Shown here one piece after another: positions 7,622 through 25,465 of a stretch of 64,000 nucleotides of DNA (within the stretch, counting starts at the first letter, position 1; each line of letters begins with the position of its first letter). The notes below the pieces were generated by a model. That model did no database searches. It was not told the origin of the DNA and saw only the letters and a list, made by a program, of their open reading frames with translations. The DNA is from Escherichia phage A4: the sequence record ON286972; one strand, 5' to 3'. Position numbers and translations under genes: made by a program.

Positions 7622-8689
7622 ATGTATAAATTTTATTTTAATGAAAATAACGAGAAGGTATATTTCCATGAAGAATTAGGTATGCGTTTCGAATGGATGC
7701 GTCCCGAAGATTTATCACCAAAATTAATTAAAACATCAAAAACACCTAAAGAACATTTTGATGAAATAATAGAAAAAGGATATAATATTTTAGGATTTGC
7801 TATAACATCAAGTGATGAATGGAAATCTAGTTTTACAAGAACTGTTGTTGAAAAAGATGGTATTATATATACAAAAAGAAATATAAATGATATAAAAACG
7901 AAAGGTATGAAATATATCATTGGGAAATATGACAATGAAAATTATAGATATTATCTTTATAAGACTTCAAAAAGTCTAATGACTGGTGAATGTGAATTAC
8001 TTTTAGAACAACCAATAATTAAAGATAAAAGAACCAAATTAACTTATAAATGCTTAAAATGTGGTCACGTTGATGAAATGGAAATTAGTAATATACAAAG
8101 TGGTCAGGGTTGCTCTATTTGTCGATTTGAAAAAACCAGATTAGCACACGCATTCACCACCGCTGAATTTGTTGAACGAGCAAAAGAAATTCATGGTAAT
8201 GTATATAACTATTCAAAAGTCATCTACATTAATAGTAGCACTCATGTTGAAATAATTTGTAAAAAACATAATAATTCTTTTTATATCATTCCAAATTTTC
8301 ATATAGCAAAAAATAAAAATCAAGGTTGCCCAATATGCTCATCTGAACATACTGAATCCAGAGCTAGTAGAGAAATAACACGTTTTTTAATTGAAAATGG
8401 TATAAAATTTAATAAAGAACAAACATTTAGTGACTGTAAAAATAAAATGTTATTAAGATTTGATTTTTATTTGGTTGATTATGATATTTGTATTGAGTAT
8501 GATGGTAAACAACATTTTGAGAAATCACCTCATTGGGGTGGAGAAGATAAATTGAAAAACATCAAGGATAACGATACTATAAAGACACAATATTGTGAAA
8601 AGAATTTTATTAAATTAATACGTGTAACATATTATGAAGACCACTTAACTGTATTAAAAAAACATCTTTCAGAGGAAGGTATATTATGA
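7622..8689 (+). CDS. putative free-standing endonuclease (zinc-ribbon Cys pairs plus C-terminal PD-(D/E)xK Vsr/DUF559-like core)
   Basis: Several CxxC pairs (CLKCGH, GCSICR, GCPICS); C-terminal FDFYLVDYDICIEYDGKQHF...IKLIRV resembles the endonuclease core of Vsr/DUF559-type nucleases. Confidence 0.5.
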   Translation: MYKFYFNENNEKVYFHEELGMRFEWMRPEDLSPKLIKTSKTPKEHFDEIIEKGYNILGFAITSSDEWKSSFTRTVVEKDGIIYTKRNINDIKTKGMKYIIGKYDNENYRYYLYKTSKSLMTGECELLLEQPIIKDKRTKLTYKCLKCGHVDEMEISNIQSGQGCSICRFEKTRLAHAFTTAEFVERAKEIHGNVYNYSKVIYINSSTHVEIICKKHNNSFYIIPNFHIAKNKNQGCPICSSEHTESRASREITRFLIENGIKFNKEQTFSDCKNKMLLRFDFYLVDYDICIEYDGKQHFEKSPHWGGEDKLKNIKDNDTIKTQYCEKNFIKLIRVTYYEDHLTVLKKHLSEEGIL

Positions 8690-9798
8690 AAAAGTATTTG
8701 GTGGGCGGCTATGTGAGGGACCGTTTAATGGGTATTCGTACAAAAGACAAAGATTATGTCATTGTCGGTGCTACCGAATCCGATATTAAGTACTTACAAA
8801 GTATTGGCTATAAGCAAGTAGGTAAGGATTTTCCCGTGTATCTAAGTCCAGAGGGTAATGAGCACGCATTGGCCCGTACCGAACGTAAAACTGGTACTGG
8901 TTACGGTGGCTTCGAAGTGAATACTAAAGGCGTGACACTAGAGCAAGATCTATACAGAAGGGATATTACGGTAAATAGCATAGCGTATGATCCAGTACTG
9001 CAAATTCACATCGACCCATACGGTGGTAAAGCTGATATCAAGAATAAAGTACTACGCCATGTATCCGAGCACTTCAAAGAAGATCCATTACGTGTATTAC
9101 GTCTAGCTCGCTTTGCTACGCGTTATTCTGATTTCTCTATACACGAGACTACTGAAGCACTTGCAATCGATATGGTAGCGTCTGGTGAGCTAAATCACCT
9201 TGTTCCAGACCGTGTTTATGTTGAATTTGAAAAAGCACTGTCAGAAGAAAAGCCAGCTAAGTTCCTTAAAACACTAAGTAAGTTGGGTTACTATGAAAAA
9301 GCATTTAATGCAACATTAACCAAAAAGTCATTGGAACTCATTGATCATATCTCTGATAATTGTACTGAAGCATATAAGCCATATTTCTTATGGTCTGTGC
9401 TTCTTGAGAAAGAAGAAGTTGGTGAGGATTCAGTACTGAATGGTGCTATTAAAATGCCCGTTAAGTACGTTAAATTCAGTAATTACATCAAACGTTTCCG
9501 TGATGATATCAAGGCATTCCGTAAAAAGACCCCAAATGAAATGGGACAATTATTACTGGATATGAATATCAAGAATAACGGCGGTGAAGAATTCCTTTAC
9601 AAAGTACTGGAATATTTTATTCTACGTAAAGAGATTGATTTAGACCTTGAAGATTTAATCATTAAGGTATATGATCGTTACACTGATGTAGTACTTCCAG
9701 ATATTCAACAACTGGTAAAAGACGGTGAGTTAGAAGCATCTGAAATCCGTGATTTTGTTTCAGATTTACGTTGTGAAGCAATTCAACAAATGTTTTAA
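8686..9798 (+). CDS. cca: CCA-adding tRNA nucleotidyltransferase
   Basis: LVGGYVRD motif, DFPVYLSPEGNEHALARTERK matching E. coli Cca, RRDITVNS motif; 370 aa without the C-terminal HD domain. Confidence 0.9.
   Translation: MKKYLVGGYVRDRLMGIRTKDKDYVIVGATESDIKYLQSIGYKQVGKDFPVYLSPEGNEHALARTERKTGTGYGGFEVNTKGVTLEQDLYRRDITVNSIAYDPVLQIHIDPYGGKADIKNKVLRHVSEHFKEDPLRVLRLARFATRYSDFSIHETTEALAIDMVASGELNHLVPDRVYVEFEKALSEEKPAKFLKTLSKLGYYEKAFNATLTKKSLELIDHISDNCTEAYKPYFLWSVLLEKEEVGEDSVLNGAIKMPVKYVKFSNYIKRFRDDIKAFRKKTPNEMGQLLLDMNIKNNGGEEFLYKVLEYFILRKEIDLDLEDLIIKVYDRYTDVVLPDIQQLVKDGELEASEIRDFVSDLRCEAIQQMF
9429..9440. repeat. 12-bp palindrome TTCAGTACTGAA (14-bp ATTCAGTACTGAAT)
   Basis: Inside cca, in the D-S-V-L-N frame. 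Confidence 0.8.
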
Positions 9799-9804
9799 AA
9801 CTCT

Positions 9805-9832
9805 GGGACAAGAGAACGACTTCTGATATAAT
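9805..9832 (+). promoter_or_regulatory. sigma70-like early promoter upstream of the NUDIX gene
   Basis: GGGACA, 16-bp spacer, TGaTATAAT. Confidence 0.5.
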
Positions 9833-9884
9833 AATTGTATCTGGGCATCATTGCTATTAAGAGATAAGATTATGCGTTATAGTT

Positions 9885-10301
9885 GTGGCATTATATTTTA
9901 TCGTGATGGTCAGATACTTGTTGGACACACAACACGGACAGAAGCATTGGGATTTACCAAAAGGTAAAACCGAGGGCAATGAAACATTTGCTGAAGCTGC
10001 TGTTCGTGAGTGCTATGAAGAAACAGGATTTGAGATTGATGAAAAGGATCTTCTCTTATTAGGTGATGTATCATACAGGAAAGGGAAAAGATTAGTTTTA
10101 TTTTTCTATACAGCTAAATACAAACCCGAACCGGATGAACTGAAGTGTAACAGTACTTATACCAATCGATATGGTAAAAGCCATCCAGAATTGGATAAAT
10201 TCATGTACATTGATGTTCAAGATTGTCAAAAGTATTTGACCGAACGAATGTGTAACAGTATAATTAAAGCTGTTAAATTGTTTCAAAAAAATAAAGGATA
10301 G
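9885..10301 (+). CDS. NUDIX hydrolase, apparently frameshifted (N-terminal strand encoded in another frame from ATG 9872)
   Basis: Nudix box GKTEGNETFAEAAVRECYEETGFE; track ORF begins at GTG 9885, while ATG 9872 opens a 31-codon frame (MRYSCGIIFYRDGQILVGHTT...) that looks like the missing N-terminus. Confidence 0.55.
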   Translation: MALYFIVMVRYLLDTQHGQKHWDLPKGKTEGNETFAEAAVRECYEETGFEIDEKDLLLLGDVSYRKGKRLVLFFYTAKYKPEPDELKCNSTYTNRYGKSHPELDKFMYIDVQDCQKYLTERMCNSIIKAVKLFQKNKG

Positions 10302-10305
10302 TTAT

Positions 10306-10554
10306 ATGAAAGTGAAAATTTATGGTCGCACGACTGGTTGTAATTTCTGTGATACAGCAAAAGCAATTTGTGAGAACAATTCATTTGAAATGGATTTTAT
10401 CGATGTGGTTTCTGAAGGTATTGATGGTGCTAAACTATCAGAAATTTGCGGTGAGCCAGTTCGTCAAGTTCCACAAATTTTCGTAAATGATGAGTATGTT
10501 CCTGGTGGATGTACTGGTTTTGTTAACGGGCTAAAAGAAGGTCGCTGGAACTAA
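10306..10554 (+). CDS. nrdC: glutaredoxin/thioredoxin-like protein (T4 NrdC-like)
   Basis: 82 aa, CNFC redox motif near the N-terminus, PQIFVNDEYVPGG resembling the glutaredoxin cis-Pro region. Confidence 0.8.
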   Translation: MKVKIYGRTTGCNFCDTAKAICENNSFEMDFIDVVSEGIDGAKLSEICGEPVRQVPQIFVNDEYVPGGCTGFVNGLKEGRWN

Positions 10555-19038: not shown

Positions 19039-21152
<2,114 letters not shown>

Positions 21153-25120: not shown

Positions 25121-25465
25121 ATGATACCACAACCCACTAACAGCACTGAATTTCAAAATGAAGTACTTATAAAAGTTAAAGAAGTACATGAATCGGACGC
25201 TGAAATCACTGACAGAATGCTTCTGATGTCTATTTTTGAAAACTTCAGAACTGGTGGTGGTTTGAGGCTTAGTAAGTATGGATTTATGATTTGTGAAGAA
25301 AATAATCTTTATGAATTTACAAAAATCCCCTTGCTAAGAGAGTTCAAAAGCTCTATAATATTTACATCGCTTGATAGAATATGTAGAAGTCCTTATTATG
25401 TTGATGGCTACTACATATATCTCTCCGACGCAATGATAGTTACTGAATTAACATTGTGTCGGTGA
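25121..25465 (+). CDS. hypothetical protein
   Basis: 114-aa ORF. Confidence 0.5.
   Translation: MIPQPTNSTEFQNEVLIKVKEVHESDAEITDRMLLMSIFENFRTGGGLRLSKYGFMICEENNLYEFTKIPLLREFKSSIIFTSLDRICRSPYYVDGYYIYLSDAMIVTELTLCR

Follow-up and report, generated by a model that had tools for sequence, protein, structure and literature searches.

How might Escherichia phage A4 make a Nudix hydrolase whose gene is divided by one extra base between two reading frames? The gene occupies positions 9872-10301 on the plus strand of the window, the whole 64,000-nucleotide stretch of DNA that was analysed (sequence record ON286972). Its two overlapping frames, 0 and +1, are each under purifying selection, one up to and the other from a single point, and the same inserted base is found at that point in related Asteriusvirus-type phages. 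Our assessment, to which we assign a probability of roughly 0.7, is that the enzyme would be made by +1 ribosomal frameshifting at ACA_CGG_A without re-pairing of the tRNA in the ribosomal P site, the ribosome itself being the putative corrector of the frame.

A Nudix gene divided between two frames

Frame 0 opens at ATG 9872, encodes MRYSCGIIFYRDGQILVGHTTRTEALGFTKR and closes at a TAA at 9965-9967, which would end an unshifted product of 31 amino acids; the +1 frame holds GQKHWDLPKGKTEGNETFAEAAVRECYEETGFE and remains open to the TAG at 10299-10301. This layout, with the Nudix box and the rest of the domain in the +1 frame, had been described in the original prediction, made by a model from the sequence of the stretch, and is confirmed by the window sequence and the translations of its open reading frames (ORFs). 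The frame-0 codons spanning the break are GGA CAC ACA ACA CGG ACA GAA, and reading in the +1 frame from 9936 gives GGA CAG AAG. Deleting one base, best placed at C 9935, yields a protein of 142 amino acids, in agreement with the earlier suggestion that skipping a base near 9930-9937 would restore a contiguous protein, and proteins corrected in this way align colinearly with in-frame orthologs through the junction (GHTTGQxHWDLPKGK). The first part of the ORF (9872-9934, codons 1-21, MRYSCGIIFYRDGQILVGHTT) covers beta-strands 1 and 2, as judged from translation, alignment and an AlphaFold model, and the second (9936-10301, codons 22-142) runs in the +1 frame to the final stop. Core relatives meet a TAA in frame 0 (ACC TAA) before the position of the window's stop at 9965-9967.

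The corrected protein matches Pfam NUDIX (PF00293) with an E-value of 2e-13; its score of 50.9 bits exceeds the cut-off of 21.1, and the match covers residues 6-88 (profile positions 7-100). Residues 3-85 align to the Ap4A hydrolase structure 3i7u in PDB without a gap at the junction. Its Nudix box, G31-F53 (GKTEGNETFAEAAVRECYEETGF, 9963-10031), is encoded in the +1 frame and fits GX5EX7REUXEEXGU, with the residues G31-KTEGN-E37-TFAEAAV-R45-E46-C-Y-E49-E50-T-G-F, of which G31, E34, E37, R45, E46, E49 and E50 are invariant in 35 homologs. The AlphaFold2 model has a mean predicted local distance difference test score (pLDDT) of 94.8 and a predicted template modelling score (pTM) of 0.86, Foldseek assigns a probability of 1.00 to RppH, Dcp2 and Ap4A hydrolase structures, and PHROG 1185, "nudix hydrolase," is matched with an E-value of 1.5e-52. 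The best explanation of these matches is that the gene product would be a complete Nudix hydrolase of 142 amino acids, of the RppH/Ap4A-hydrolase/NudE type.

The short segment encoded upstream of the break belongs to this domain. As the original prediction had proposed for its first strand, the model places beta-strands at residues 2-8 and 14-20, with the frame break directly after the second, and the Pfam match begins at residue 6. Homologs without a counterpart to the upstream peptide would have spoken against that proposal; instead, the counterpart is present and ranks with the best-conserved segments of the family. Among 34-35 homologs, down to 51% identity, F9, L16, G18 and H19 are invariant and C5, I7, I8, Y10, G13, I15 and T21 nearly so; at the junction itself, G22 is invariant and T21 is kept in at least 90% of the family. 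Both the conservation and the structural model thus point to a segment that the protein would need.

This evidence bears on the possibility that there is no recoding at all, and that a 31-residue N-terminal peptide and a C-terminal fragment begun at GTG 9885, GTG 9903 or ATG 9906 assemble non-covalently, or that the fragment acts alone. Start codons do exist in the +1 frame, where the original prediction had recognized GTG 9885 as the only one and overlooked the other two. The annotated relatives that we examined mark no frameshift; their coding sequence (CDS), of 132-136 amino acids, begins at an internal ATG or GTG, with ATG being used by annotators, and the shortened sequence nevertheless scores above the Pfam NUDIX threshold. 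However, its match begins only at profile position 26, and the fragment would lack beta-strand 1 and carry unrelated residues in place of beta-strand 2 in what the AlphaFold model presents as a compact single-domain fold. The sequence around the start codons argues in the same direction. A Shine-Dalgarno-like AAGAGA precedes ATG 9872 (9859-9874), and GAGA(T/A) lies 7-9 nucleotides upstream of this ATG in frameshifted and in-frame relatives alike; no Shine-Dalgarno-like or purine-rich element precedes the internal starts. Variable sites from 9906 to 9928 obey the frame-0 constraint, and the "N-terminus" read in the +1 frame is unconstrained (MVRYLLDTQH, MVRYLSGIQH, MVRYLLVIQH). The internal ATG is also found, out of frame, in the in-frame relatives, because the codons for R-D-G generate it. 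We therefore consider a split or truncated enzyme quite improbable. In all annotated relatives examined, the internal start gives a Nudix protein that lacks its true N-terminus and carries out-of-frame residues. The two frames probably have to be joined at the junction to obtain the correct product, in which case annotation, cloning and expression work based on these records would be wrong.

An old insertion shared by related phages

In a DNA alignment, five Asteriusvirus-type genomes carry the identical extra base, within CAY ACA ACA C GGA CAG, and the Munch / fENko-Kae01 group is in frame, with ACT ACC GGG CAA. Read directly, the 12-nucleotide junction ACAACACGGACA (ACA ACA C GGA CA) is identical in 10 of 10 isolate genomes and in one metagenome contig (L036). 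When the corrected protein was used as a tblastn query, 34 Asteriusvirus-type records from Escherichia and Salmonella phages matched only from residue 13-22 onwards, and other genera among the matches listed aligned over residues 1-142, or nearly so, in a single frame. These in-frame genera comprise the Munch group, GAP32, CBB, Serratia BF, Yersinia fHe-Yen9, Erwinia phages, and Xanthomonas XbC2 and XaC1; EJP2, which is labelled Asteriusvirus, is in frame too. Across 11 in-frame lineages, the junction reads ACT, ACA, ACG, GCA or TGT, followed by ACC, ACT, ACA or ACG and then by GGG, GGT or GGA. The combination ACA ACA GGA occurs in none of these 11 lineages, and the frameshifted genomes all retain ACA ACA C GGA.

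Since a single-base discrepancy is the commonest assembly error, an error of sequencing or assembly could be suspected here, as could phase variation at the DNA level or transcriptional slippage in the AC-rich tract. However, the base is present in independent genomes obtained by different laboratories in eight countries (South Korea, Canada, USA, Pakistan, China, Czech Republic, Brazil and South Africa), as well as in the metagenome contig, and the site contains no homopolymer longer than two and no simple repeat. Slippage during transcription was rejected at a site without a homopolymer. The original prediction had located the break in an ACACAACAC tract, which proved to be specific to the window; the short AC repeat is not conserved, because relatives read CATACAACAC, and a role of the AC-rich tract as a slippery element finds no support. 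The informative feature is the rare CGG overlapping GGA. We regard the chance of an error, of phase variation or of slippage as negligible.

To describe selection on the two parts of the gene, Nei-Gojobori counts were made for pairs within the frameshifted clade, with 21 codons upstream. In the downstream part, the ratio of non-synonymous to synonymous rates (dN/dS) is 0.04-0.09 at a raw proportion of synonymous differences (pS) of 0.19-0.67, and the upstream codons show 1-6 synonymous against 0-1 non-synonymous changes. If either segment is read in a wrong frame, the non-synonymous proportion (pN) exceeds pS. Constraint in the frameshifted clade is no weaker than in in-frame relatives, because the latter have dN/dS values of 0.08-0.10 at similar divergence. 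The position of variable columns follows the same division. Counted by frame-0 codon positions 1, 2 and 3, they number 1, 0 and 7 upstream of C 9935, with seven of the eight at third positions (the chance of at least 7 of 8 sites falling in one named phase is 0.0026), and 6, 1 and 0 from the site to the frame-0 stop, which corresponds to third positions of the +1 frame. Over the entire downstream part, 75, 23 and 11 columns are variable, so that 75 of 109 lie at +1-frame third positions. The switch of codon phase is bracketed by the variable sites 9928 and 9941.

These counts bear directly on an inherited pseudogene, in which an old inactivating insertion would have ended production of a functional protein. 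A frame-disrupting insertion is what a pseudogene would be expected to contain, and an in-frame sister lineage exists (L032-L034); even so, dN/dS remains low downstream and similarly low upstream while synonymous divergence reaches 0.67. The 11 frameshifted sequences contain no additional stops or indels, whereas a neutral downstream ORF would have stayed free of stops with a probability of only about 1e-2 to 4e-4. Furthermore, the nearest synonymous sites flanking the junction (9925, 9928, 9941 and 9944) differ among sub-lineages, and the insertion is therefore older than their divergence and has not spread recently. We consider a pseudogene very unlikely. Taken together, the shared extra base, the constraint on both halves and the stop-free ORF lead us to discount a pseudogene, a recent mutation and an assembly error. 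Of the three options left side by side in the original prediction, a sequencing indel and a recent inactivating mutation are thus set aside by the shared base and the selection on both halves, and translational frameshifting is the only one to survive.

The history of the insertion is complicated by recombination. The nearest relative at the protein level, P0004, is encoded in frame on metagenome contigs L032-L034, with the junction ACT ACG/ACA GGG, and the NUDIX gene tree joins the window to this lineage (L032/L034; bootstrap 0.92). A comparison in sliding windows, together with trees of separate partitions, reveals a recombinant patch inside the gene, from an in-frame-gene lineage, at about 10000-10160 on the plus strand: over these roughly 150 nucleotides, identity is 90.6% to L032 and 73-79% to core Asteriusvirus, while outside the patch the gene is 87-88% identical to the core and 84% to L032. 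The regions flanking the gene are mostly nearer the core than L032, and the tree built without the patch unites the window with the core Asteriusvirus clade (bootstrap 0.80). Because the patch explains the grouping with L032 and the rest groups with the core, a single gain in a common ancestor is sufficient. A gain followed by loss, or by transfer, of the extra base was rejected, as the tree signal comes from the recombinant patch. The best explanation of these alignments is that the insertion would have been present since the common ancestor of this phage and core Asteriusvirus. It has been retained while synonymous sites diverged by more than half a substitution each, and despite recombination with in-frame phages inside the Nudix gene itself.

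Searches for further frameshifted lineages yielded only 121Q in IMG/VR and one PBECO4-like contig in the JGI metagenomes. A collection of 5.8 billion protein sequences contained no protein identical to this Nudix product, and the search returned only core-type truncated ORFs and the in-frame relatives P0004 and P0006. No report of the break was found in the literature on Asteriusvirus, PBECO4, 121Q, nudix and frameshift; it is not listed in the GeneTack survey, and the Nudix gene goes unmentioned in the papers on phAPEC6 and UE-S1. The gene family and the phage and enterobacterial setting appear not to have been reported for corrective +1 frameshifting, whereas the class of mechanism, that of the hungry codon or "corrective" +1 shift, is known.

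Proposed decoding of the junction

The insertion creates a codon that this phage almost never uses. In 52 long ORFs of the window (19,132 codons), CGG occurs twice and is the rarest sense codon, while GGA, the +1 codon at the break, occurs 200 times (10.5 per 1000) and ACA, the last frame-0 codon before it, 502 times (26 per 1000); these ORFs contain no other in-frame ACA-CGG pair. The two in-frame CGG codons counted in them lie at 20547-20549 and 25460-25462, one within AAC_CGG_A 13 codons before a stop and the other within TGT_CGG directly followed by TGA. Neither is followed by a long open +1 frame, and no other CGG-linked +1 junction is supported in the window.

No tRNA genes are present in the window, and related phages illustrate which codons are served by phage tRNAs. 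The genome of fEgEco12 encodes tRNAs for Ser, Ser, Met and Asn and two for Thr(UGU) with normal anticodon loops of 7 nucleotides. In UE-S1 there are also Gly(UCC), the reader of GGA, annotated in BAU.Micro_ELP-22 as well, and Arg(UCU), the reader of AGA. Neither fEgEco12 nor UE-S1 has a tRNA that reads CGG. The tRNA sets of the frameshifted phages are variable: Thr(UGU) occurs in all of them, with two copies in fEgEco12, Gly(UCC) and Arg(UCU) occur only in some, and the loci concerned (9988-10141 in fEgEco12, L031; 1689-1760 and 8887-8961 in UE-S1, L038) lie in a cluster interspersed with HNH endonuclease genes.

The proposed shift site is ACA_ACA_CGG_A at 9929-9938, in which the extra base C 9935 opens the zero-frame CGG (9935-9937) and precedes the +1 codon GGA (9936-9938). 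Translation would start at ATG 9872 and proceed until ACA (Thr21, 9932-9934) occupied the P site and CGG the A site. This codon would be read only by the scarce host tRNA-Arg(CCG), which amounts to about 639 molecules per cell in E. coli (PMC2790909), and the ribosome would pause. During the pause, Gly-tRNA(UCC) could pair with the overlapping GGA, C 9935 would be skipped, and translation would continue in the +1 frame through ...GHTT-GQKHWDLPKGK... into the remainder of the domain. A ribosome that failed to shift would read 10 more codons, reach the stop and release the 31-residue peptide. The junction peptide predicted for the +1 product is DGQILVGHTTGQK in this phage and DGQILIGHTTGQNHWDLPK in PBECO4/121Q. 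Since the Thr peptidyl-tRNA cannot re-pair on CAC, the event would belong to the "occluded base" type known from Ty3 and glass sponges and not to slippage as in prfB or Ty1; the latter was rejected on the ground that moving from ACA to CAC gives no P-site re-pairing.

Several points weigh against this proposal. The trans-frame protein is itself a predicted product, and tRNA-Gly(UCC) is not encoded by every member of the group, being absent from fEgEco12. Most efficient bacterial +1 sites allow re-pairing, and CAC, one base downstream of ACA, forms no Watson-Crick pair with the anticodon UGU. Sequence inspection showed no Shine-Dalgarno-like stimulator upstream at the spacing found in prfB. Nor was a structure found that is supported by covariation (RNAalifold covariation term +0.56; compensatory pairs 2 of 32) or one specific to the clade, the z-scores of 3' folds (-1.5 to +0.7) not differing from those of in-frame relatives. 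With neither a stimulator nor such a structure found, the efficiency of the shift may therefore be low. Across the clade, 38% of four-fold sites are invariant, and the invariance of the three at the junction is only weakly significant when taken alone (P ~0.05). Finally, the comparative data locate the shift only within 9929-9940, and the exact shifting codon is accordingly given here as a prediction.

This last point leaves room for recoding by another route, namely a +7-nucleotide hop of peptidyl-tRNA-His from CAY 9926-9928 to CAC 9933-9935 (giving GH-GQK, with the two Thr absent), a shift one codon earlier or later, or decoding of CGG as Arg first (HTTR-QK). CAY and CAC border the site in every frameshifted genome, and bypassing is known to use landing sites with little pairing potential (PMC2790909). 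However, a hop from CAY must compete with fast decoding of ACA, a common codon served by the phage tRNA-Thr(UGU), and products without the two Thr, or with Arg in place of Gly, fit the family less well because of its conserved T21 and invariant G22. We consider such routes improbable and favour the shift at ACA_CGG_A.

Two further candidates were examined and rejected. A stimulated shift of the prfB or PSA type does not match the site, which has no Shine-Dalgarno-like element and no supported 3' structure, and whose zero-frame stop lies 10 codons away. A frameshift-suppressor tRNA that decodes a quadruplet was likewise rejected, given the 7-nucleotide loops of tRNA-Thr(UGU), the lack of tRNA genes in the window and the mismatch of the one tRNA with an 8-nucleotide anticodon loop, CUUCAUAA, which matches neither ACAC nor CGGA. 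This tRNA is encoded in UE-S1 (L038:4183-4257; ON568341.1 64071-64145), is reported by ARAGORN with the anticodon "tcat" and by the Rfam tRNA model with 51.8 bits, and is a single-base variant, restricted to UE-S1, of a tRNA-Met(CAU) that has 74 nucleotides in most related phages. It could be a reader of quadruplets or UGA, a damaged gene or a sequencing error.

A more far-reaching version of frameshifting at ACA_CGG_A would make it regulatory, with an efficiency set by host tRNA-Arg(CCG) relative to the phage tRNA-Gly(UCC) and tRNA-Thr(UGU), and would limit production of full-length Nudix protein to a certain phase of infection or a certain state of host translation. This would represent a natural Ty3-like shift without P-site re-pairing in an enterobacterial system, and we hold it to be rather doubtful.

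Genomic setting, implications and known systems

The Nudix gene of this jumbo phage lies between a CCA-adding tRNA nucleotidyltransferase gene (8686-9798) and a glutaredoxin gene (10306-10554), an order that is the same in relatives, and the region 9700-10400 is about 82% identical in DNA to Asteriusvirus phages such as PBECO4 and 121Q. Upstream of the gene, a promoter scan recovered the promoter-like site noted in the original prediction at 9805-9832 on the plus strand, a sigma-70-like candidate consisting of GGGACA, a 16-nucleotide spacer and a TG-extended TATAAT (10 of 12 matches plus TG). Its core bases are invariant in a DNA alignment of seven genomes from two genera-level groups. An extended -10 element and downstream block, TGATATAAT-N4-GTATCTG (9824-9843), are conserved over several genera. 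No second copy of this combination exists in the 64-kb window, and because of this single occurrence at the Nudix locus it looks like a locus-specific regulatory element and not a general phage promoter consensus.

The relation between the Nudix and glutaredoxin genes varies among phages. In the window they are separate, with the Nudix stop at 10299-10301 and the glutaredoxin ATG at 10306. In EJP2 (OQ411014.1 105065-105742) and several metagenomic lineages (P0009, P0013-P0016 and P0020), they form an in-frame fusion of 225-227 amino acids comprising PF00293 and PF00462, which may point to a functional connection between Nudix and glutaredoxin. In the TH47 / Ecwhy_1 sub-lineage, the Nudix ORF is four codons longer at its C-terminus (147 amino acids when corrected) and overlaps the glutaredoxin start. 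The record of Salmonella phage SD-1_S14 (OR699183.1) annotates glutaredoxin as two short overlapping CDSs, 671-796 and 774-908, in place of the single 249-nucleotide gene of its relatives, which suggests a further frame disruption or an assembly error in the region 671-908 of that record.

To our knowledge, bacteria and phages seldom depend on a +1 frameshift to make a functional protein, the main cases being prfB and a few phage structural genes. If our reading is correct, phages of E. coli would offer an experimentally tractable shift at ACA_CGG_A without re-pairing or a visible stimulator, and one that would link the corrective shifts at rare NGG_A codons in mitochondria to a system in which tRNA levels can be manipulated. 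The persistence of the insertion suggests that the phages tolerate it or benefit from it, for instance as an attenuator or a sensor of tRNA balance for the Nudix enzyme, which may act on RNA 5' ends or on dinucleotide polyphosphates. If the shift were regulatory, an enzyme of the RppH/Dcp2/Ap4A-hydrolase type would be under translational control, its gene standing next to that of the CCA-adding enzyme.

As a protein, the product resembles the T4 NudE-type Nudix hydrolases of PHROG 1185, and its relatives in GAP32 and 121Q are annotated as NudE-like. The Nudix box is intact in this phage, but its gene is interrupted, whereas that of every in-frame related jumbo-phage lineage examined is not.

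As a proposed recoding site, it can be compared with cox3, nad6 and other mitochondrial genes of glass sponges (Hexactinellida), in which one inserted base (T, in rare cases C) immediately precedes a conserved GGA codon for Gly, so that an extremely rare zero-frame UGG or CGG overlaps GGA; both sides of these genes are conserved, and the arrangement has been interpreted as a Ty3-like shift at a slow codon, UGG_A or CGG_A (PMC2267718, PMC5009743). The same NGG_A arrangement is found here, with C 9935 directly 5' of GGA, an invariant G22 and the rarest codon of the window in the zero frame. The sponge genes differ in being translated in mitochondria with a reduced tRNA set, whereas the present gene would be read by enterobacterial ribosomes; the sponge genes also belong to other families and carry a different codon ahead of the site. 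Yeast Ty3 (GCG_AGU_U) likewise combines a slow A-site codon with a lack of P-site re-pairing, the incoming +1 aminoacyl-tRNA setting the frame. However, it is eukaryotic, relies on a 3' stimulator and special near-cognate peptidyl-tRNAs, and yields a second product, Gag-Pol, where a single enzyme would be restored here.

The same or a closely related translation apparatus is represented by E. coli yehP, in which a +1 shift at GGT_CGG_C was verified by mass spectrometry, and by other CGG_C sites from FSscan, CGG_C being the top-scoring A-site context for +1 shifting in this species (PMC2790909). These sites share the hungry CGG, tRNA-Arg(CCG) and a Gly codon in the +1 frame. The yehP site differs in its +1 codon, GGC, in having a Shine-Dalgarno-like element upstream and in allowing the P-site tRNA to re-pair in part, and shifting there yields a truncated protein (PMC2790909). 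The prfB gene (RF2, CUU_UGA_C) provides a bacterial +1 shift that yields a full-length functional protein and is conserved over long evolutionary distances, but it combines an A-site stop, CUU to UUU slippage and an upstream Shine-Dalgarno stimulator with autoregulation, none of which is present here. Listeria phage PSA, as cited in PMC5009743, uses +1 shifts at a rare codon in its cps and tsh genes; these occur at CCC with re-pairing and a pseudoknot or stop as stimulator, and they add a C-terminally extended structural protein where a single enzyme would be produced here. In mitochondrial ND3 of birds and turtles, a conserved extra nucleotide has long been kept in an essential gene and is thought to be skipped during translation, a "corrective" shift like the one proposed for the Nudix gene, with the differences that it is mitochondrial, that its site is CTB_AGT_A and that it had multiple independent origins (PMC7814300).

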